Source: Thainema sp. | Lineage (GTDB): Bacteria; Cyanobacteriota; Cyanobacteriia; Phormidesmidales; Phormidesmidaceae | Assembly: GCA_052168235.1 (NCBI GenBank) | Contig: JBQLZK010000034.1 | Coordinates: 12,128 to 76,127, forward strand | Direction: 5' to 3' | Length of the DNA: 64,000 bases | Shown: positions 11,676 through 20,926 of the stretch, one piece after another | Numbering within the stretch: the stretch's first letter is position 1 | How the letters are laid out: every line of letters starts with the position of its first letter | Notes under the pieces: generated by a model | Told to the model about the DNA's origin: nothing | Databases searched by the model: none | Seen by the model: the letters and a program-made list of their open reading frames with translations, nothing else | Position numbers and translations under genes: made by a program

Positions 11676-11823
11676 TTGATTCATCCCAACCCACGCCCAA
11701 TCAATTGATTGAGATGTTCAATTTTTGATGGAAATCGGCTATTTGACAGCCAACATCGCCCTACAACGCTCCATCTTGTTTCACAATGTAAAGAACTGGG
11801 CCTGTAGAGATTGTTTGGAACGA

Positions 11824-12720
11824 ATGGCGCGCTTTACTCCGACTCTGATTGAAAATCTGACCGAATCGACCTCGATTGCCATGATGAAAAACATGGTGCG
11901 ATCGCAGATTCCCACTCCGCTTTCGGAGCAACCGATCGAAACGGCCTACGTCAAGCAGGGCCAGTCGGACACGCCAATTGTGCTGATTGCGGGGTTTGAC
12001 AGTTCGCTGCTGGAGTTTCGGCGATTGCTGCCGCTGTTGGCGACGGAGGCGGAAACTTGGGCGGTGGACATTCTGGGCTTTGGCTTTACCGATCGGCCCG
12101 CAGATGTCGAGTATTCGCCGGAGGCCATTAAGCTCCATCTGCATGCGTTTTGGCAAACGTTAATCAAGCGTCCGATAGTACTGGTCGGGGCATCAATGGG
12201 CGGGGCAGCGGCGATTGATTTTGCGCTGACCTATCCCGAATGCGTGGCGCAACTGGTGCTGCTGGATAGTGCAGGCTTTGCGGCTGGGCCGGCGATGGGT
12301 AAGCTGATGTTTCCACCGCTGGATCGCTGGGCGACCAATTTCTTAGCCAGTGCCTGGGTGCGGCAAAAGATTAGCGAGAATGCCTACTGCGATCGCGCTT
12401 TTGCCACGGAAGATGCCCGCATCTGTGCGGCACTGCATTTGGAGCATCCCAACTGGGCCAAGGCGCTGATTTCGTTTACCAAGAGCGGCGGCTACAACTT
12501 CCTCAGCGACAAAATTGCCCGAATTTCTCAAGACACGCTGATTATTTGGGGAGAACGCGATCGCATCCTCGGCACGAAAGACGCCCACAAGTTTGAGAAG
12601 ACGGTGGCCAATAGCAAACTGGTCTGGATTCCCAACTGTGGCCATGTGCCGCATCTGGAGAAGCCTCAAGAGACGGCTCAGCCAATTCTAGAGTTTCAGC
12701 GGCAGGGATTGACGGTTTAA
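11824..12720 (+). CDS. Alpha/beta fold hydrolase
   Basis: GASMGG nucleophile elbow, GHVPHLE catalytic His; start probably ATG 11824. Confidence 0.85.
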   Translation: MARFTPTLIENLTESTSIAMMKNMVRSQIPTPLSEQPIETAYVKQGQSDTPIVLIAGFDSSLLEFRRLLPLLATEAETWAVDILGFGFTDRPADVEYSPEAIKLHLHAFWQTLIKRPIVLVGASMGGAAAIDFALTYPECVAQLVLLDSAGFAAGPAMGKLMFPPLDRWATNFLASAWVRQKISENAYCDRAFATEDARICAALHLEHPNWAKALISFTKSGGYNFLSDKIARISQDTLIIWGERDRILGTKDAHKFEKTVANSKLVWIPNCGHVPHLEKPQETAQPILEFQRQGLTV

Positions 12721-13847
12721 GTTGCGCTGCTTGTTTGGTTACTGTGATGGTGGATCACGGGCAAGGGAGAATACGCTTTGTTGGCAGATCCAGCGGCATT
12801 CAAGAATTTATCGATGATTTCCTGCTGATGCAGAATCCGTGCCTCTAGGGGATGAATGGGGCCAGGTGTGTAGACGCCGCTGGCATAACCCCGCTGCACC
12901 TGTTCGGTGATGGCCATGTCTTCAGCCATGAAGGTTTCGAACTCGTCTAGAAGCTGATCGACGGATGAACTGAGAGCGGGGATGCCATATACTTCCAGGT
13001 GAATGGTGCAGGTGTTCACCGTGACTGGATCAATTCGTATCCAAGCCAGGATGCCGTTTGGGAGTGCCAGCAGGTGCAGATTGGGGAAGATACCAAAGGT
13101 GAAAAAGCCGAGGCGGTTGCGATCGCACAAATGCTCCAGTGTCGAATTCTCGGCTCGCCAGCGGGGTGTTGTCGGCGTGTATAGATAATTCACGAAGCGG
13201 TCAAACTGATGTTCGTACTGGTTGACAGGGCCTTGAATCTTGTGCAGCGTGTGGCGATGGGTCACGGCAACGTGATAGTCGCATAGGGTGTTGTCGTGAT
13301 AGACCTTCCAGTTGCAGGCGACGGTGTAAGTTTTGCGAATGAGGGGTTGAGTGTCGGCGGTGCGATAGCCCTGAATGGTTTCTGGGATGGGTGATAAGAA
13401 CTCGGCCAGAGGCGGTGCGTCGGCATCAAAGCTGATGAAGGCAAAATTGGCCCAGGTTTCAAGTCGAACGGCGTGAAGGGAATAGTCAGCTAAGCAAAAG
13501 TCTGCTGGAAACTGCTGCTGCGCGGCGGTACCAATCAGTTCGCCGTCTAGGGAGTAAACCCAGGCGTGATAAGGGCAGACGAGGTGCTTGGCGGATTGGG
13601 GAGTGCTGGACTGGCAGAAGGCGGCAGCGCGATGCGGGCAAACGTTGTGGTAGGCGCGCAGATCGCCGGATTGGGTTCTGACCAACAGGATGCTGCGGTT
13701 GGCAATGTCGATGGTTTGGACGGTGCTGGGGGCGAGGTGCAGGCTGTCGCCGATGTAGAGCCAGGTGCGATGGAAGATGTGGGTTTGTTCGAGGGGTGGA
13801 ATGGTGGGGGAGGTGTAGAGGTGGGGGGGAAGGAGGAAGGTTGGCAT
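12717..13847 (-). CDS. Rieske non-heme iron oxygenase alpha subunit (choline monooxygenase/CntA-like group)
   Basis: Rieske motif CPHR...CPYHAW; mononuclear Fe motif NWKVYHDNTLCDYHVAVTH; C-terminal EDMAITEQVQRG. Confidence 0.9.
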   Translation of the reverse strand: MPTFLLPPHLYTSPTIPPLEQTHIFHRTWLYIGDSLHLAPSTVQTIDIANRSILLVRTQSGDLRAYHNVCPHRAAAFCQSSTPQSAKHLVCPYHAWVYSLDGELIGTAAQQQFPADFCLADYSLHAVRLETWANFAFISFDADAPPLAEFLSPIPETIQGYRTADTQPLIRKTYTVACNWKVYHDNTLCDYHVAVTHRHTLHKIQGPVNQYEHQFDRFVNYLYTPTTPRWRAENSTLEHLCDRNRLGFFTFGIFPNLHLLALPNGILAWIRIDPVTVNTCTIHLEVYGIPALSSSVDQLLDEFETFMAEDMAITEQVQRGYASGVYTPGPIHPLEARILHQQEIIDKFLNAAGSANKAYSPLPVIHHHSNQTSSAT

Positions 13848-13849
13848 TG

Positions 13850-14200
13850 GGAGATGCTACTGGGGAGGGTTAGTTGGGAGATGTTGGTTGGAAGATGTTA
13901 GTTGGGTGTTAGAGGTTGGTTCTGAGGGGACTAGCCCCCTCAGACTCCCCCACTGGTGCGTTCCGACGCCCCAGGCCCCCCCGGACGAGTTGATCGGTAG
14001 GTCGTGTCACAGCGCTTCGCTTTGCTGGAGTGATCGGGCGTTACCTGTGAAGGCTTCCAAGGTTTGGCGTTCCGCCAAACCGCTACACATCACAGATAGC
14101 TGTTGATGCTCACAGGTTATTTGTTTGGAGGGGGTCTGGGGGACGCAACCGTCCTCCAGCGGGGGCGTGGGGGCAAGCCGCCCCCACAAACGGGGTTTTC
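13850..14200. repeat. Intergenic repeat cluster: degenerate 14-bp tandem repeats plus GC-rich hairpin (MITE-like) element
   Basis: GTTAGTTGGGAGAT/GTTGGTTGGAAGAT/GTTAGTTGGG; imperfect hairpins around TCTGAGGGGACTAGCCCCCTCAGA and GTGGGGGCAAGCCGCCCCCAC. Confidence 0.55.
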
Positions 14201-14233
14201 GCAACAAATTAGCTATCCTATCGCAAACATTCC

Positions 14234-15007
14234 CTAACCCTTCACTGTGGCAACTTCCCTTCCCCTCAGCAAATCCATAATTTCCTCCCGATACGTGTGA
14301 AACTTCGATAGTCGCTTAACGTGATAAGTGCGATCGCACGGTAAATCTATCTCAAACTCCTGCTGCACGGTTCCTGGACGAGCCGACAGCACATAGATCC
14401 GCTGAGAGAGGAAAACCGCTTCTTCGACATCGTGGGTAATCATTAAAATACTGGTGCCTGTTTGTCGCCAGAGGTCAAGCAAAAACTCCTGCATGGATTC
14501 TTTAGTTTGTACGTCCAATGCCCCGAAGGGTTCATCCATCAGCAAAATTTTGGGCTGGCAGGCCAGAGCACGTGCGATCGCAACTCGCTGTTTCATGCCG
14601 CCAGAAAGTTCTTTGGGTAGAGAACCGGCAAATTGAGTCAGGCCGACGACATTGAGATAGTAGGAGGCGCGTTGGCGACGTTCGGCTTTATCGATGCCTT
14701 GTAGTTTGAGGCCAAATTCGACGTTTTTCTGGACGGTCATCCAGGGATAAAGGGTGTAGCTTTGGAACACCATGCCTCGGTCGGCTCCTGGGCCAATTAC
14801 GGGTTGGCCATCGACGATGATTTCGCCGGAGGTAGGCTGATCGAGTCCGGCCACCAAGCGTAGCAGGGTGGATTTACCGGAGCCGGATGCGCCAACAACG
14901 CAGACAAATTCGCCCGTTTCCACATGAAGGTTAATGTCCTTCAGCGCTACTAGGGTGCCGTTATGAACGGGAAACTGCTTATAGAGGTGGTTAATTTCGA
15001 GGTGCAT
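14234..15007 (-). CDS. NitT/TauT-family ABC transporter ATPase (guanidine operon)
   Basis: GASGSGKST, LSGGMKQR, LLMDEPFGALD; operon position. Confidence 0.9.
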   Translation of the reverse strand: MHLEINHLYKQFPVHNGTLVALKDINLHVETGEFVCVVGASGSGKSTLLRLVAGLDQPTSGEIIVDGQPVIGPGADRGMVFQSYTLYPWMTVQKNVEFGLKLQGIDKAERRQRASYYLNVVGLTQFAGSLPKELSGGMKQRVAIARALACQPKILLMDEPFGALDVQTKESMQEFLLDLWRQTGTSILMITHDVEEAVFLSQRIYVLSARPGTVQQEFEIDLPCDRTYHVKRLSKFHTYREEIMDLLRGREVATVKG

Positions 15008-15066
15008 AATCGATTCAAAATACTAAACAAAATAGGAGCGGAATTTATATCAATTCGGTGAGTCTC

Positions 15067-15142
15067 GTAGGTTGGATTTCGCGTTGCTCAACCCAACATT
15101 TTCAGGGCTTGTTGGGTTTCGTTATCACTCAACCCAACCTAC
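15067..15142. repeat. GTAG-type REP doublet
   Basis: GTAGGTTGGATTTC...CTCAACCCAAC paired with inverted GTTGGGTTTC...TCAACCCAACCTAC; similar copies at 48896-48924 and 63903-63933. Confidence 0.75.
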
Positions 15143-15158
15143 AAAATTGATGACTAGC

Positions 15159-15998
15159 TCAAAATGCCCATTTACAGGTAAATTTCAAGAGCTGACGAAA
15201 GAAGAGATCTAGGCCAAAACCAATCAGCCCCAGCACAATCAAGCAGGCAAAAATCTCATCGGTGTTGAGGAACTTCTGAGCGAGCACAATGCGCTTACCG
15301 AGGCCAACTTCGGCGGCGAGCAGTTCCGCTACGACCACCAGGTTCCAAGATGTGGCGATGTTGATCCGGAAGGCGTCAATGATGCTGGGCACCACGTATG
15401 GCGTAATCACTTGAAACAACACCTGAGACCGTCTGCCGCCGAGAGTGTAGGTGGATTCAATCAGGTCTTTGGGCACGAACTTGACCGCATCCATAATCAT
15501 CAGGATGTTGAAAAATAATGTTCCGATAAAAATCAGCGCGATCTTGGGGGCTTCACCAATGCCCAGGTAGATGATCAGTAACGGAATAAACGCGGGCGCA
15601 GGCATGTAGCGGAGGATGCCGCTGATCGGTTCAAACAGCGATCGCACACTAGCAAAGGCTCCCATTGCAATACCAATCGGCGTAGCAATGATGGCTGAAA
15701 GCAAAAAGCCAATGCTGACCCGCGCAAAGCTCGCACCAATGTCCTGCAAGAGAAAGCCTCGCTCCCAAAGGCTAACCAAGGCAGCAATCACATCAGCGGG
15801 ACTGGGCAGAAAAACGGGATCAATTTCAGTAAACGCGGTTAGCACCCACCACAGGGTTAGGGGAATCGCAACCGATAAGATCATTAACGTCCAATTGAGG
15901 GACGCTGGAATGGCTTCTGCAATCCGCCAAAAAACCGTGGGTCTGAGCTGTCCAGCAGGTACGCTCAAGGATTTAGCGGGACCAAAGTCAGGATTCAT
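15159..15998 (-). CDS. NitT/TauT-family ABC transporter permease (guanidine operon)
   Basis: FLPSP, RYMPAPAFIPL, EAA-like loop, VVAELLAAEVGLG. Confidence 0.9.
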   Translation of the reverse strand: MNPDFGPAKSLSVPAGQLRPTVFWRIAEAIPASLNWTLMILSVAIPLTLWWVLTAFTEIDPVFLPSPADVIAALVSLWERGFLLQDIGASFARVSIGFLLSAIIATPIGIAMGAFASVRSLFEPISGILRYMPAPAFIPLLIIYLGIGEAPKIALIFIGTLFFNILMIMDAVKFVPKDLIESTYTLGGRRSQVLFQVITPYVVPSIIDAFRINIATSWNLVVVAELLAAEVGLGKRIVLAQKFLNTDEIFACLIVLGLIGFGLDLFFRQLLKFTCKWAF

Positions 15999-16129
15999 GA
16001 TTAGAAATTAAAAATAAGTGTGCGAGGAAGCTGGGTAAGGGCGAAAGGCATTTCGCCCTCAAATAACAGGAATTCAAAAATAGGTTGTCTAAGGATTGTG
16101 GATTAAATAGCCTGTAAACCGTTCTGTCC

Positions 16130-16158
16130 GTAGGGATACGGCATTGCCGTGTCCCTAC
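16130..16158. repeat. GTAG-type REP palindrome
   Basis: GTAGGGATACGGCATTGCCGTGTCCCTAC; related copy at 55639-55666. Confidence 0.75.
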
Positions 16159-16218
16159 CCAAAGATTTCACTCGTTAAAACCCGCCTTTACAGGGTGTAC
16201 GACAGGGGCACTAACGAC

Positions 16219-17268
16219 TTAACCTGCCTGCGTCGCGGCGTATGCCTCAACAAAACGGCTATCGAAAAGAGTGGTCAGATCAGGTGCTTCGGGAATAAAA
16301 CCAACATCCACCATGAAATTGGCCATTTCTTGAGCGGCATAGGGCATGTGCGTCATGTCATCGCCATCGCTAAAAGCCTCTAGGTTGTCCTCAAGTGTGA
16401 ACATCCTGGTGCCTTCTTTCAGCATTTGCAGCTCTTCAATCGAGACATTGGCGCGGGCAGCCATGATTTCGTCGGCCCGTTCGGGATTCTCTTCCATAAA
16501 GGCGAGAATATCGAACCAGGTATTGACCATTGCTTGCGCTTGATCAGGCCGCTCGTCAACTAGCGTTTGAGTCAACACGAGTAGGTCAGGAATCGCTCCC
16601 GGATATTCTGCGGACGACAGCAATTCTTTGCTACCTTCTCGCTTCAGCGCCGTCAGCCAAAAGGGAGGAAACGCACCTACGGCATCCACTTGGCCAGCGG
16701 CAAAGGCGGCAGCAGCAGCGCCCGTTTCTAGATCAACAATTTCCACATCATCACGGGACATACCATTCTCTTCCAGGGCCAGCGTCAGCAAAAAATCATC
16801 GACGACGCCTGCTTCCACGGCCACTTTTTTGCCTGACAAGTCCTGAATCGAATTGATGTCTTCCGTGACGATAATCTTGTCGTTGCCAGCGGAGTTGTCG
16901 TTCACCAAGACAACAACCTCGCCATTCACGGCGTCAGCGGCAAAGGAAATGGTGTCGTTCAGCGTTTGACAGTTGCCGTCAAGCTGTCCGGCGGCCAAAG
17001 CCTCCATTGACGCCAGATAGCCGTCGAACCACTTCAGCTCCACATTGGCTCCGTTTTGCTCAAATAGCCCTTCCTCTTCCGCGATCGCCCACGGCCACCA
17101 GCCCGCCCAGTTGCTATAGCCAATGACAATCGTTTCTCCGGCGGGAGCGGGAGCCACTGCATCGGGCGATTCGCTCGTCTCTTGGTTTCTGGGTGTACAG
17201 CCAACTGCGATCGCAGTTGCCAGCACAAACATGACGCAAAGCGAAAGGAGTCTGCGTAACTTCATCAA
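16219..17268 (-). CDS. ABC transporter substrate-binding lipoprotein (likely guanidine-binding, Sll1080-like)
   Basis: Signal peptide with AVGC lipobox; GYSNWAGWWPW; position in the gdmH operon. Confidence 0.85.
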   Translation of the reverse strand: MMKLRRLLSLCVMFVLATAIAVGCTPRNQETSESPDAVAPAPAGETIVIGYSNWAGWWPWAIAEEEGLFEQNGANVELKWFDGYLASMEALAAGQLDGNCQTLNDTISFAADAVNGEVVVLVNDNSAGNDKIIVTEDINSIQDLSGKKVAVEAGVVDDFLLTLALEENGMSRDDVEIVDLETGAAAAAFAAGQVDAVGAFPPFWLTALKREGSKELLSSAEYPGAIPDLLVLTQTLVDERPDQAQAMVNTWFDILAFMEENPERADEIMAARANVSIEELQMLKEGTRMFTLEDNLEAFSDGDDMTHMPYAAQEMANFMVDVGFIPEAPDLTTLFDSRFVEAYAATQAG

Positions 17269-17376
17269 CTTTCCTCAAAAACAAAACTTCAATCACAGAG
17301 AACACGCAACAGGTCACCCACAACAGCCAATCCACCTTTGAACCCAATCCAAAAATCGGCAATCCAAAATCCAAAA

Positions 17377-18069
17377 TCAAATCAAGGCAGGTTCAGTTTG
17401 GTGGATCAGGTGAGATCGCACCCAGTCGTACCAGCTATCTAACCCTTCGCCTGTTTTGGTCGAAACCGGGATAATCGCGCAGTGGGGATTCATCTGGCGG
17501 ACGTTGGCTTCAATTTGGGCCAAGTCCACATCTAGGTAAGGCACAAGATCAATTTTGGTGATCAGCAGACAGTTAGCTTCTTGGAACATCACCGGATATT
17601 TCAGCGGTTTGTCCTCTCCTTCTGTGACGCTCAGGAGTGCGACCTTGGCGTGTTCGCCCACTTCAAACTCGGCTGGGCACACAAGATTGCCAACGTTTTC
17701 CACCAGCACCAGGTCAAACTGATTGGGATCGTACTGGTGGCTGAGCTGATGAATGCCGCCCGCCACCATCTTGGAATCGAGATGGCAAGAGCGTCCGGTG
17801 TTGATAGCAATCACGGGTACACCATGCTGCCGGATGCGTTCGGCATCCAGTTCCGTGGTCATATCGCCTTCAATCACGGCAATCTTCAAATCAGCGCTCA
17901 GTGTGGCAATGGTGCGCTCTAGCAGTGCAGTTTTGCCTGCTCCTGGGCTGCTCATAACGTTGAAGCAGGTGATACCCCACTCGTCGAAATGTTCGCGGTT
18001 GTGATCGGCTCCTTCCTGATTCGCATGGAGCAGATTAATTCCCAGAGCGGCGTCTACGGTTTGATGCAT
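17377..18069 (-). CDS. hypB: HypB-like Ni-insertion GTPase (GhaB-type maturase for guanidine hydrolase)
   Basis: [36 protein letters not shown]. Confidence 0.92.
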
Positions 18070-18152
18070 AAGAATACAGCGTTAACGGTGTTGATTTCGA
18101 AAAATTGAACAAAATACGGTCTTGGTGAGGCTGAAATGGCTTAAGCGAGTGA

Positions 18153-18521
18153 TTACGGCGAATAGCTCGCAGCAGTGGCATATTCCACCCGATCAATTTT
18201 CAGCTCACGGCCCGAACGGATATCTTCCATCGGGCTGCCGCAGTCGGGGCAGGCGTAGCGCAGGCCAATTTCGGGCTGATACTCCTGCTGGCAGGGATGA
18301 CAATAGGCAATCAGTGGCACATCTTGAATCACCAATTCGGCTCCGTCTAAAAACGTGCCGCGCGTTTGGGCATCAAAGGCAAACTGGAGACCAGCGGGTT
18401 CCACGCAGGTAAACTGCCCCACGACCAGATGCACCTTCGCAATGGGCTGCTGCTCCGCTTGCGACTCCCACCAGTCGCGCAGGGTGATAATCAGCGCTTT
18501 GGTCATATCAACTTCATGCAT
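18153..18521 (-). CDS. hypA: HypA-like Ni metallochaperone (GhaA-type)
   Basis: N-terminal MHE, CHPC...CPDC zinc site, SGRELKI. Confidence 0.92.
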   Translation of the reverse strand: MHEVDMTKALIITLRDWWESQAEQQPIAKVHLVVGQFTCVEPAGLQFAFDAQTRGTFLDGAELVIQDVPLIAYCHPCQQEYQPEIGLRYACPDCGSPMEDIRSGRELKIDRVEYATAASYSP

Positions 18522-18531
18522 GGGTCATCTC

Positions 18532-19719
18532 CTACTGCCACGGTTCATCGACAACTTGCGCTTCCTCATGGATGTAGTTAGGTTTGCCGTTGCGCGGTAG
18601 CTGACCGGACAGCACCAAATGCGCCATCGTGTCGCAAATCACGCGGGTCGCCATTAGCGAGGTCATGTCGCTGACATCGTAGGGTGGGGACACTTCTACG
18701 ACTTCGAGGCCGCAAACAGGAGCTTTTTGCACAATTTTGCCCAGTAGATACAGTGCCTCGCGCGGCAGCAGGCCACCGGGTTCTGGCCAGCCCGTTCCAG
18801 GGACGAATCCGGCATCAATACAGTCAATATCGAAGCTAATCCACACGCAGTCGGTACCATCTAGCGCTCGCTCTAAGGCAAAATCTACGGCGGCATCTAG
18901 CCCCATTTCTGTAATATCGGTGACGGTCAGGATATTGGTGCTGCGCTCTCGGCAAACTTTCACGCCGGGGCGAGGCACTTGCCAGCCGCCAATTCCCAGT
19001 TGCACTAGGTTCTTTGCAGGCGCGTTGGCCATGTTGGTCGCATGGAACCAGGGGCAGGTGTGCATCCGCTCATCCAAGTCCGTTTCCTGTGTATCCACAT
19101 GGCGGTCAAAGTGGATAATGCCAACTTTCTTGTCGCCCAGGTGACGGCAAACGCCCCGCACTGTGGGGAAGCCAATGGAGTGGTCGCCGCCTAGGATGAT
19201 GGGGAACGCGCCGGAGCTGAAAATATGGGAAATGCCTTTGGAAATTTGGTCGAACGACTTTTCGTTATTCGCCGGAATCGTGAAGATATCGCCCACGTCG
19301 CACAGGGTAATTTGCTCCCGCAGATCCACGCCTAGCTCGAAGTTGTAGGGCGTATACAGGGCTGAAATCCGCCGAATGCCCTGTGGCCCAAACCGCGTAC
19401 CGGGTCGATAGGTCGTGCCGGAATCGTGGGGCACCCCCACAATCGCCACATCGTACTCGCCCACCTTCCGCACGTCTTCTAGATAGGGCGCTTTCAAAAA
19501 AGTATTGATGCCTGCAAAGTGAGGCAGTTCGCCTCGTGAGAAGGTAGAAATTGTGCGATCGCGGATGCTCTCAGCTGCTTCCAGACCATACTCTAAGCCT
19601 TTGGACACTTCCTGCTGCCAGCCCGTCATCGGCAGCTGGGTTTCTTTTTGTAAGGCTCGTTGAGCTTCGGTATCCCCTGGATTTTGAAACAATGATTCGT
19701 CAGTCATGAACTCAGGCAC
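18532..19719 (-). CDS. gdmH: Ni-dependent guanidine hydrolase (ureohydrolase family, Sll1077-like)
   Basis: GGDHS, HFDRHVD, SFDIDCIDAGFVPGTGWPEPGG; long N-terminal extension; followed by hypA/hypB/ABC genes and preceded by a ykkC riboswitch. Start may be ATG 19707. Confidence 0.88.
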   Translation of the reverse strand: MPEFMTDESLFQNPGDTEAQRALQKETQLPMTGWQQEVSKGLEYGLEAAESIRDRTISTFSRGELPHFAGINTFLKAPYLEDVRKVGEYDVAIVGVPHDSGTTYRPGTRFGPQGIRRISALYTPYNFELGVDLREQITLCDVGDIFTIPANNEKSFDQISKGISHIFSSGAFPIILGGDHSIGFPTVRGVCRHLGDKKVGIIHFDRHVDTQETDLDERMHTCPWFHATNMANAPAKNLVQLGIGGWQVPRPGVKVCRERSTNILTVTDITEMGLDAAVDFALERALDGTDCVWISFDIDCIDAGFVPGTGWPEPGGLLPREALYLLGKIVQKAPVCGLEVVEVSPPYDVSDMTSLMATRVICDTMAHLVLSGQLPRNGKPNYIHEEAQVVDEPWQ

Positions 19720-19816
19720 CTAAATAAATTGGGTCGAATCTGTTATAGGTCAATGCCAGCAATCGCGAGCGAAAATTTTGCCCCAGATTCCCATTCAATC
19801 AACAAAAATTAGCTAC

Positions 19817-19872
19817 AAAAAAACCGGGGAAACGCAAACAAAGCTGCTAACCTTGCTGCTGTTTCTCCCGGG
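19817..19872 (-). terminator. Intrinsic terminator of the riboswitch expression platform
   Basis: Minus strand CCGGGAGAAAC...GTTTCCCCGG followed by a T run; its 5' arm overlaps the 3' end of the aptamer (ON-switch layout). Confidence 0.8.
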
Positions 19873-20098
19873 CTTTTATCCCGCCGTGTGACCAAGTTTG
19901 TCACGTCAACTGGTGCAAATTACTTGGCTGCCCCTCTTGGACCAGACACGATGGCTATATCTTGCAAATCCGTCAATAAAAACCGAGTAATAGTTTGGAT
20001 GAGAGGCAGACTTCGCCTGCCTCTCATCCAAACTATGCTGGGATCTCATAACCGGAACTTGCATGAGACATTGCTAAAGCCGGAACCCTAGAAGCAAT
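19864..20098 (-). ncRNA. Guanidine-I (ykkC-yxkD) riboswitch
   Basis: Minus strand TGCTTCTAGGGTTCCG...CTGGTCCAAGAGGGGCA...ACACGGCGGGATAAAAGCCCGGGAG matches the ykkC consensus blocks; sits upstream of gdmH. Confidence 0.9.
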
Positions 20099-20135
20099 TT
20101 TGGATGAATTAAAGAGTTTGAGTTGTCTAGTCCAA

Positions 20136-20177
20136 GAAATACCAATCTGCCGCTGAGGCAGAGGTAGCTTCTGATAC
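20136..20177 (-). promoter_or_regulatory. NtcA-activated (class II-like) promoter of the guanidine operon
   Basis: GTA-N8-TAC box GTAGCTTCTGATAC at 20164-20177; on the minus strand a TATTTC -10-like hexamer follows exactly 22 nt downstream. Confidence 0.75.
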
Positions 20178-20289
20178 AAAAATGGAAATCGTTCAGCTCA
20201 AACGCTTGATGTGGACAGAACCAGCCAGTTTTTCGGCACCTGCCATCTTTCGTTACAATAGTTAACTAAGCAAAACTTAAAGTATTCAA

Positions 20290-20485
20290 GATGCGTTAGG
20301 TACTGACGGTACGTATTGAGCGTAGTTGTCCGATCCCCCGCTGTCGCCGCCCCCTTGAAAAAGGGGCTATACCACCGCTAGCTCAAAGTCCCCCTTTTTC
20401 TAGGCGAAGCCATGCCCAAAGGGCTATAGGGGGATTTAGGGGGATCTGTCAGAGTATTTCGCTAAACAAGTACCGCTAACGCATC
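20290..20485. mobile_element. Nested MITE-like repeats
   Basis: Outer inverted ends GATGCGTTAG(CG)GTACT; inner GATCCCCC...AGGGGGATTTAGGGGGATC element (20332-20446) related to 48197-48271. Confidence 0.6.
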
Positions 20486-20509: not shown

Positions 20510-20926
20510 TTGCCCACGATGTCCTCGACTCCTCAAACCATTCAGTACCCACCCTCGACGCTGGCTCGTGCTGAGCGAGCCGTGCGCTGTAGCCCATTTC
20601 GACCTCAGCTCTTCACAACGATTCAGTGGCAAAGCGTGGAGCTACGTGCGATCGCATCTGAGCGAGGCGTGCGTAATGGCTATACCACTCGCGCTTTGCC
20701 CGAACTAGTGGCTGAAACCGAATTGCTCTGGCTAATTCAAGTCGGCCTCCTGCGGCGTGAGGTCGATGGTCAGGGCTTAACCGATAGCTTCCGCTTGACC
20801 CCCTTGGGACGGCAACTGGTGCGCCGCTGGGAACAGCAAAGAGACAAATCTCTATCTGCTTCCTGGCTTGACCAGCTATTAAATTGGCTGAATCGCTGGT
20901 TCCGTCGGCCAAGTTGGTTGTCATAG
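20510..20926 (+). CDS. Conserved cyanobacterial protein (Npun_F0494 family)
   Basis: RAERAVRCSPF and WLIQVGLLRREVDGQGLTDSFRLTPLG motifs. Confidence 0.75.
   Translation: MPTMSSTPQTIQYPPSTLARAERAVRCSPFRPQLFTTIQWQSVELRAIASERGVRNGYTTRALPELVAETELLWLIQVGLLRREVDGQGLTDSFRLTPLGRQLVRRWEQQRDKSLSASWLDQLLNWLNRWFRRPSWLS

Follow-up and report, generated by a model that had tools for sequence, protein, structure and literature searches.

Cyanobacterial guanidine assimilation was worked out only between 2022 and 2025, and the closest described gene set is the gdmH-ghaA-ghaB-gimABC cluster sll1077-sll1082 of Synechocystis sp. PCC 6803 (PMC12704784). The published model consists of a riboswitch, GdmH, GhaAB and GimABC, and has no place for a Rieske gene. 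Here we analyze an operon of this kind that ends in a gene for a Rieske oxygenase, found on the minus strand of a 64,000-nucleotide (nt) stretch of Thainema sp. DNA (GCA_052168235.1, contig JBQLZK010000034.1, positions 12,128-76,127 of the forward strand), which we refer to as the window. Two further reports bear on this gene. In the first, Sinn et al. 2025 described the 2-oxoglutarate (2-OG) dioxygenase MgdH, which hydroxylates methylguanidine, and MgdL, a new lyase with catalytic D49 and R51 that splits the unusually stable N-(hydroxymethyl)guanidine (PMC12508155). In the second, Doré et al. [quoted passage not shown] A Rieske protein goes unmentioned in PMC12704784, its preprint, PMC12186494 and PMC12508155. 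Full-text literature searches (guanidine hydrolase, riboswitch or methylguanidine combined with Rieske; methylguanidine demethylation in cyanobacteria), with bioRxiv supplements outside their scope, returned no description of such an enzyme. A first-pass annotation of this DNA had stated that no such enzyme was known for the operon. This holds for the function of the Rieske protein, for which we found nothing published, but the adjacency is already in print for marine Synechococcus and Cyanobium (PMC10119275), and demethylation on a guanidine operon is known with a 2-OG dioxygenase (PMC12508155). We conclude that the gene adjacency was noticed earlier, and that, in the literature searched, its function was never explained.

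The window carries, in order on the minus strand, an NtcA-type box, a guanidine-I aptamer, gdmH, hypA-like and hypB-like genes, NitT/TauT-type ATP-binding cassette (ABC) importer genes, a gap of 386 base pairs (bp) and the Rieske gene. All of these elements had been listed by the annotation and all were found. Gene calls were made from an open reading frame (ORF) listing and from Pfam and NCBIfam scans of the window proteins; the importer gene names follow PMC12704784. The genes are:

18532-19719, minus strand: gdmH, arginase family, nickel-dependent guanidine hydrolase type (PF00491, 1e-76; scores below the agmatinase cut-offs)
18153-18521, minus strand: hypA-like nickel chaperone gene, ghaA type (Pfam/NCBIfam scans)
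17377-18069, minus strand: hypB-like nickel GTPase gene, ghaB type (Pfam/NCBIfam scans)
16219-17268, minus strand: gimA-type substrate-binding protein gene, NMT1/SsuA family (Pfam/NCBIfam scans)
15159-15998, minus strand: gimB-type ABC permease gene (Pfam/NCBIfam scans)
14234-15007, minus strand: gimC-type ABC ATPase gene (Pfam/NCBIfam scans)
13848-14233, minus strand: spacer of 386 bp, about 300 bp of it a dispersed repeat resembling a miniature inverted-repeat transposable element (genome self-matches)
12717-13847, minus strand: gene for a Rieske non-heme iron oxygenase alpha subunit of 376 amino acids (PF00355, 2.5e-16; PF00848, 5.5e-24)

The leader (putative riboswitch plus NtcA-type box), the six genes and their order are like those of the Synechocystis cluster, in agreement with the module that the annotation had recognized. 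Judged by Pfam and NCBIfam families, the arginase-family hydrolase, the HypA/HypB-type chaperones and the NitT/TauT-type importer correspond to the cyanobacterial guanidine assimilation gene set in strand and order. Orthologues of gdmH that are 81-92% identical lie behind guanidine-I riboswitches. The window differs from Synechocystis by the added Rieske gene, an insertion in the aptamer and the repeat before the Rieske gene; the Synechocystis cluster lacks a Rieske gene according to Doré et al. (PMC10119275). There is no reductase gene within the operon and no beta-subunit gene near the Rieske gene. Pfam scans, with no dedicated search, placed no 2-OG/Fe(II) dioxygenase among the seven operon genes.

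The annotation had proposed a survey of homologues for linkage to gdmH or guanidine riboswitches. We surveyed 401 genomes sampled across the phylum, using a homologue threshold of E<=1e-40. Homologues were present in 14 genomes, 13 of which were gdmH-positive, compared with 54 of the 401 genomes overall (gdmH orthologues 81-92% identical). In 10 of the 14, the Rieske gene came next in line behind the ATPase gene of the importer in the gdmH operon. A quick tree was built from 90 homologues, after 4 of 94 rows outside 330-480 amino acids had been dropped; rows L026, L029, L032 and L102 had read-through or mis-started ends. Twenty-five cyanobacterial sequences, the window protein included, clustered together (SH-aLRT 100, stem 1.26) and were separate from the 65 other homologues, which were proteobacterial, actinobacterial or other cyanobacterial paralogues. 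A paralogue from the same Thainema genome (contig C82) was considered as a clade member and rejected, as it fell outside the clade. Members of the clade were present in 12 of the 401 genomes; all 12 have gdmH, and 10 carry the Rieske gene in the gdmH operon. Most of the sampled gdmH-bearing picocyanobacteria with small genomes are among these 10. The position at the end of the cluster is the same as that of CK_00002251, and the small-genome members of our sample (33-37% identical), which may correspond to CK_00002251, fall in the clade of the window protein.

A scan of species-representative genomes contributed 15 more cyanobacterial loci, for a total of 27 clade loci. As related loci are not independent, we take the counts as a description of the pattern and not as a test of it. 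A same-strand gimC-type ATPase gene immediately precedes the Rieske gene in 24 of the 27. Ten loci have the arrangement gdmH-hypA-hypB-gimABC-Rieske, and three have a glutamine synthetase (GS)-like gene inserted after hypB. Seven read GS-like-gimABC-Rieske and have gdmH at another place in the genome (checked in five of the seven), three are cut upstream by a contig end, and in one the Rieske gene comes after a second ABC system that is divergent and includes an isochorismatase-family gene. The remaining three have no ABC genes nearby (one after heme oxygenase, one after isiA, one other) and nest inside the clade in the quick tree. From the gimC stop to the first in-frame Rieske start there were at most 70 nt in 19 of 21 measured loci, with an overlap of 1-7 nt in nine; the exceptions were the window (386 nt) and L023 (305 nt). 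The guanidine-I model RF00442 scored above gathering ahead of 16 operons. Identity inside the clade drops to 32-36%, which indicates that the link between the Rieske gene and the importer is old. Purifying selection acts on the Rieske gene, with a dN/dS of 0.12 for the 125 codons that could be compared with L034; the other operon genes gave 0.05-0.11. The lack of linkage that would have spoken against the annotation's proposal was not seen: 24 of 27 loci lie behind a gimC-type gene, and 12 of 12 genomes are gdmH-positive. We conclude that the Rieske gene is the conserved, though optional, last gene of a guanidine-riboswitch-led gdmH-hypAB-gimABC operon.

Two loci in this set had unusual arrangements. 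In genome G083 (L103:7363-11906), the gene upstream of which the Rieske orthologue lies belongs not to gimABC but to a second ABC system of the NMT1 type. The binding protein of this system is only 32% identical to that of the window. An isochorismatase-family hydrolase gene lies between its permease and ATPase genes, no riboswitch was detected there, and the gdmH operon is on another contig and has no Rieske gene. At L024:4685-5906 the gdmH match is in two pieces, which may reflect a pseudogene or a sequence error.

We examined the Rieske protein for cofactor motifs. The Rieske [2Fe-2S] motif C70-P-H72 ... C91-P-Y-H94 (CPHR..CPYH) is invariant in all 24 aligned sequences. The 2-His-1-carboxylate iron triad H192/H197/D310 is also invariant and aligns with H208/H213/D323 of CntA. 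Judged by these motifs, the product of 12717-13847 is an intact Rieske non-heme iron oxygenase alpha subunit. An AlphaFold model of the 376-residue protein (pLDDT 89.4) gave CntA (6y8j) and Stc2 (3vca) as top structural matches, with template modeling scores of 0.75-0.79 and 22-25% identity, ahead of terephthalate and biphenyl dioxygenases. CntA and Stc2 also lead among solved relatives by sequence. With these enzymes and GbcA, which belong to group V and whose chemistry is oxidative N-dealkylation, the window protein shares an alpha-only architecture and both metal-binding motifs, and its best matches in sequence and fold are in this group.

The residues that define group V are a different matter. 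We mapped CntA residues onto the window protein by pairwise alignment (chain numbering equals that of the paper plus 20), using the pocket in PMC7948474. CntA Y203 and F216 correspond to Thr187 and Thr200, both invariant in the clade. Y225 corresponds to an invariant Tyr211, Y295 to Leu284 and F319 to Phe306. The bridging E205 is replaced by Cys189 (Asp in the picocyanobacterial branch), and C206 by an invariant Asp190. By definition, CntA position 203 is an aromatic Tyr or Phe in group Va and Asn in group Vb (PMC7948474), in contrast to Thr187 here. According to PMC10952381, a Cys pair flanks the first iron His in group V (E-C-Y-H-C). The window protein reads C189-D190-Y-H192-V193 and the picocyanobacterial branch D-D-Y-H-V, so that both the bridging Glu and the Cys pair are missing. 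An adjoining reductase gene is missing as well. The GbcA model NF058607 scored 128.6 bits against a cut-off of 670 and matched residues 2-205 alone. The annotation had likened the enzyme to those of the CntA/GbcA/Stc2 type. CntA and Stc2 are indeed the closest structures, but the window protein is only a distant relative in which the defining residues are missing. Small polar residues in place of the cage aromatics indicate that the quaternary-ammonium cage is gone and that an acidic residue lies beside the iron site. We infer that such a site would suit a guanidinium group.

The neighbors of the Rieske gene offer a second line of evidence. An ORF with an Hri1-type fold lies directly after the Rieske gene in seven loci (L022, L025, L027, L029, L030, L032 and L100). 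In an alignment of this family D39-V40-R41 is invariant. A by-eye comparison with the MgdL alignment of Sinn et al. (supplement 3, PMC12508155), which includes a Leptolyngbya protein, showed the common motifs GxWQR, WxQ, AD[IV]R, FAG, CTWH and VEHW, with the AD[IV]R block corresponding to the catalytic D49/R51 of MgdL. An hhalign bridge joined the family to a gammaproteobacterial member (98%, E 1e-13). Judged by eye, the protein behind the Rieske gene is likely homologous to MgdL, the methylguanidine lyase. When the L027 protein was used in a word-index search, 34 matches came back, to close cyanobacterial relatives only, and a protein atlas held only "hypothetical protein" clusters for the family; two listed relatives are absent from the authors' MgdL alignment. 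In G074 (L100:8507-9232) the MgdL-like ORF is broken by one in-frame stop, which may be a pseudogene or a sequence error. The family also adjoins distant Rieske genes in two Acidimicrobiia loci, with no obvious guanidine genes there. In Gammaproteobacteria, an Hri1/MgdL-like gene stands beside an FA_desaturase-type oxygenase and an NMT1 ABC system (L119:1921-3800), and another has methylamine dehydrogenase on one side and an arginase-family gene on the other, two Rieske genes being close by (L120:6227-14364). The MgdL-like lyase seems to pair with several unrelated hydroxylases.

The GS-like gene encodes a GmaS-type ligase, which scores 591 bits with TIGR03105 (cut-off 470) and whose closest solved structure is that of a glutamate-methylamine ligase (PDB 9qur, 1e-128). 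The gene is found in 10 of the 27 clade operons. It occurs independently of the Rieske gene; genome G264, from the family of the window, has the ligase in its gdmH operon and no Rieske gene, and no ligase orthologue was found in the Thainema genome (best match 42%). This ligase gene counts as a second optional member of guanidine-riboswitch operons (L025-L030, L022, L105-L107, L122), with or without gdmH in cis and with or without the Rieske gene. As neighbors, the MgdL-like lyase and the GmaS-type ligase fit a methyl-removing role of the Rieske enzyme.

The operon can be compared with the MgdH/MgdL system. In both systems an oxygenase, in some relatives together with a lyase, has been added to a guanidine-riboswitch operon with an ABC importer and a guanidine-degrading enzyme, and the small cyanobacterial protein behind the Rieske gene in the seven loci looks like MgdL and keeps the D-x-R pair. 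The oxygenases themselves have no homology, because MgdH is a 2-OG/Fe(II) dioxygenase and the window enzyme a Rieske oxygenase. The host pathway of MgdH/MgdL is carboxylation, whereas that of the window is hydrolysis by GdmH. No lyase was found in the window's genome or in most of its relatives.

These results led us to a model in which the Rieske enzyme takes a methyl group, or another small alkyl group, off a substituted guanidine and feeds the guanidine to GdmH; we give this model about an even chance. GimABC would import methylguanidine or a close analogue. Ferredoxin would supply the electrons, given that the operon has no reductase gene. The Rieske enzyme would then hydroxylate the N-methyl (or small N-alkyl) group, and the hemiaminal would give guanidine and an aldehyde. 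In the Thainema strain, where no lyase homologue was found, N-(hydroxymethyl)guanidine would decay spontaneously; in relatives that encode an MgdL-like lyase, that enzyme would split it. GdmH would hydrolyze the released guanidine to urea and ammonium. An NtcA promoter would start expression under nitrogen shortage, and the released guanidine would open the riboswitch in a feed-forward loop. Such an operon would likely let the cell also use the nitrogen of substituted guanidines. The annotation had proposed that the enzyme may be a substituted-guanidine N-dealkylase feeding GdmH, and this reading gains support from synteny in 24 of 27 loci, the MgdL-like neighbor in seven and the GmaS-type ligase in ten operons. 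Taken together, synteny, optional neighbors and fold point to methylguanidine N-demethylation as the predicted reaction. The broader proposal falls a little short of an even chance: that the clade is a Rieske-type methylguanidine (or small alkylguanidine) monooxygenase, a non-homologous counterpart of MgdH, recruited to the GdmH pathway throughout the cyanobacteria including marine picocyanobacteria.

Several observations weigh against N-dealkylation of a substituted guanidine. Only 10 of the 54 gdmH-positive sampled genomes have the Rieske gene in the operon, the two other genomes from the family of the window lack it, and three clade members sit elsewhere, as described above. The missing group V hallmarks make the demethylase analogy, drawn from residue comparisons, a loose one. 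A guanidine-I riboswitch that was tested in V. boliviensis shows no binding of methylguanidine (PMC12508155). GimA is known to bind guanidine only, and methylguanidine is unmentioned in PMC12704784. A lyase gene was found neither in the window's genome (99.99% complete; single query, the L027 protein) nor in any of five other Rieske-bearing genomes (profile search), which means that the lyase link holds for a minority of loci only. In a profile search, 270 matches were obtained among 1.84 billion representatives, and no Halomonas-type protein or motifs were among the 150 matches listed; there was also no tool-scored direct match linking V. boliviensis MgdL to the Hri1-like proteins of cyanobacteria. 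Finally, a 300-bp repeat stands between the Rieske gene and gimC in the window, and co-transcription of the Rieske gene with the operon across it is putative.

We considered other explanations for the conserved position of the gene. The enzyme could be a guanidine-releasing C-N oxygenase acting on larger compounds (agmatine, arginine, 4-guanidinobutyrate, taurocyamine or creatine). Its target for hydroxylation would be the carbon adjoining the guanidino nitrogen, in the way that CntA attacks the carbon beside trimethylammonium, and the products would be guanidine and an aldehyde. The synteny evidence serves this explanation equally, the best structural match is the C-N cleaving CntA, and the second ABC system of G083, with its diverged binding protein and isochorismatase-family hydrolase, hints at a substrate beyond plain guanidine. 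However, the neighboring importer is in most loci the orthologue of GimA, which binds guanidine at 97 nM (PMC12704784), and we infer a small pocket. MgdL was characterized on N-(hydroxymethyl)guanidine and is inactive on dimethyl intermediates (PMC12508155), and the GmaS-type neighbor points to a one-carbon amine. We consider a larger substrate unlikely.

Oxidation of guanidine itself or of another small imported nitrogen compound (N-oxygenation, or demethylation of, for example, methylurea) would account for the finding that the constant partner is the importer rather than gdmH, which lies outside the operon in seven loci. The small polar residues in place of the aromatic cage and the invariant Asp190 next to the iron ligand also agree with it. 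Yet a path to ammonium by way of N-hydroxyguanidine would be poor and probably toxic while GdmH is present in each of these genomes, and an MgdL-type partner implies a carbon-bearing hemiaminal. This possibility appears distinctly improbable.

GS-like ligases and oxygenases occur as pairs in amine catabolism, as in the aniline dioxygenase system. The Rieske enzyme might accordingly demethylate the product of the GmaS-type ligase, for example converting gamma-glutamylmethylamide to glutamine and formaldehyde. The ligase is present in 10 of the 27 operons, and in four proteobacterial loci, distant Rieske homologues have nearby GS-like genes that are 46-68% identical to this ligase. Against this, the two genes occur independently, as Thainema and G264 illustrate, and 14 Rieske operons with a visible upstream region have no ligase; we regard this role as very unlikely. 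The least probable explanation, to which we assign a slight chance, is a role unrelated to guanidine (pigment, iron-stress or aromatic metabolism) within a merely shared transcription unit from which the repeat may have uncoupled the window copy: it would suit the three stray clade members, the 386-bp spacer and the iron link that alone was seen by Doré et al. (PMC10119275), but the gene has stayed behind gimC, its start codon overlapping the gimC stop codon, among sequences that share only 32-36% identity, the stray copies nest inside the clade, and the gene is under purifying selection.

The leader of the operon contains three elements upstream of gdmH:

20164-20177, minus strand: NtcA-type box GTA-N8-TAC, GTATCAGAAGCTAC (motif match upstream of the riboswitch)
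19863-20097, minus strand: guanidine-I (ykkC) aptamer (conserved cores align with relatives)
19800-19862, minus strand: expression platform, a stem followed by a T-run, terminator-like (sequence reading; conserved with L034)

As a bare motif, the NtcA box is about as frequent in the window as chance predicts (5 found, 4.5 expected). In six of seven related loci, a GTA-N8-TAC box is present 75-125 nt upstream of the riboswitch. No Rfam match to the guanidine-I riboswitch was found in the window at gathering level. A sensitive Rfam scan gave Guanidine-I at 37.6 bits for 19863-19998, against a cut-off of 63. The 5' half of the aptamer, CTAGGGTTCCGGC, sits at 20079-20091 on the minus strand, and all conserved stretches are present and align with relatives scoring 64-89 bits. 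The low score is due to an insertion of about 123 nt in the P1a loop (roughly 19950-20072), which includes a perfect 20-bp hairpin at 19990-20036; the inserted part folds as a self-contained hairpin (z -7.6). L034 (92-98% identical) lacks the insertion, and one contig of an approximately 90% identical relative has 23 nt where the window has 19950-20072. We considered a multicopy mobile element as the source of the insertion and rejected it, as the genome gave the self-match and one short match alone. The stem and T-run at 19800-19862 are predicted to form a terminator-like expression platform.

Genes at the two ends of the operon were also noted. A divergent ORF of 138 amino acids at 20510-20926 on the plus strand, upstream of the riboswitch and without a Pfam match, is conserved in relatives. 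Its counterparts are 96% (L034) and 61% (L123) identical in gdmH-type operons and 47-49% identical in six loci with GS-like-type operons, and it could be a conserved partner or regulator. At the other end, a convergent alpha/beta-hydrolase gene (11725-12720, plus strand) overlaps the Rieske stop codon by 4 bp, which leaves no space downstream for a terminator or another operon gene.

The spacer before the Rieske gene had been described by the annotation as mostly repeat DNA, and this was borne out: positions of about 25-335 of its 386 bp match at least six long copies in other parts of this genome, at 81-86% identity. Including the self-match and shorter pieces, there were 21 genome matches in total, and short tandem units are present at the 3' end of the spacer. 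We compared 12500-20300 with RNA-library contigs from an approximately 90% identical relative (three runs of one study: X11, X12 and X16). The Rieske gene, gimC, gimB and the gimA-to-gdmH region were on separate contigs and none crossed 13942-14124, and such contigs cannot prove transcription. Short stretches in other operon gaps (15097-15138 and 16084-16171) had summed metatranscriptome contig depths from thousands to more than 100,000, and assemblies break there.

The Rieske enzyme is small, single-subunit and easy to test. If methylguanidine demethylation is its reaction, the enzyme would represent another, independently arisen way to carry out a conversion whose first description dates from 2025, and Rieske N-dealkylation chemistry would extend to guanidines. 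In that case one could regard the guanidine operon as a modular kit made up of a hydrolase, an importer, a demethylase, a lyase and a methylamine ligase. Methylated guanidines would be a real, so far uncounted nitrogen source for phytoplankton, relevant to aquatic nitrogen cycling.

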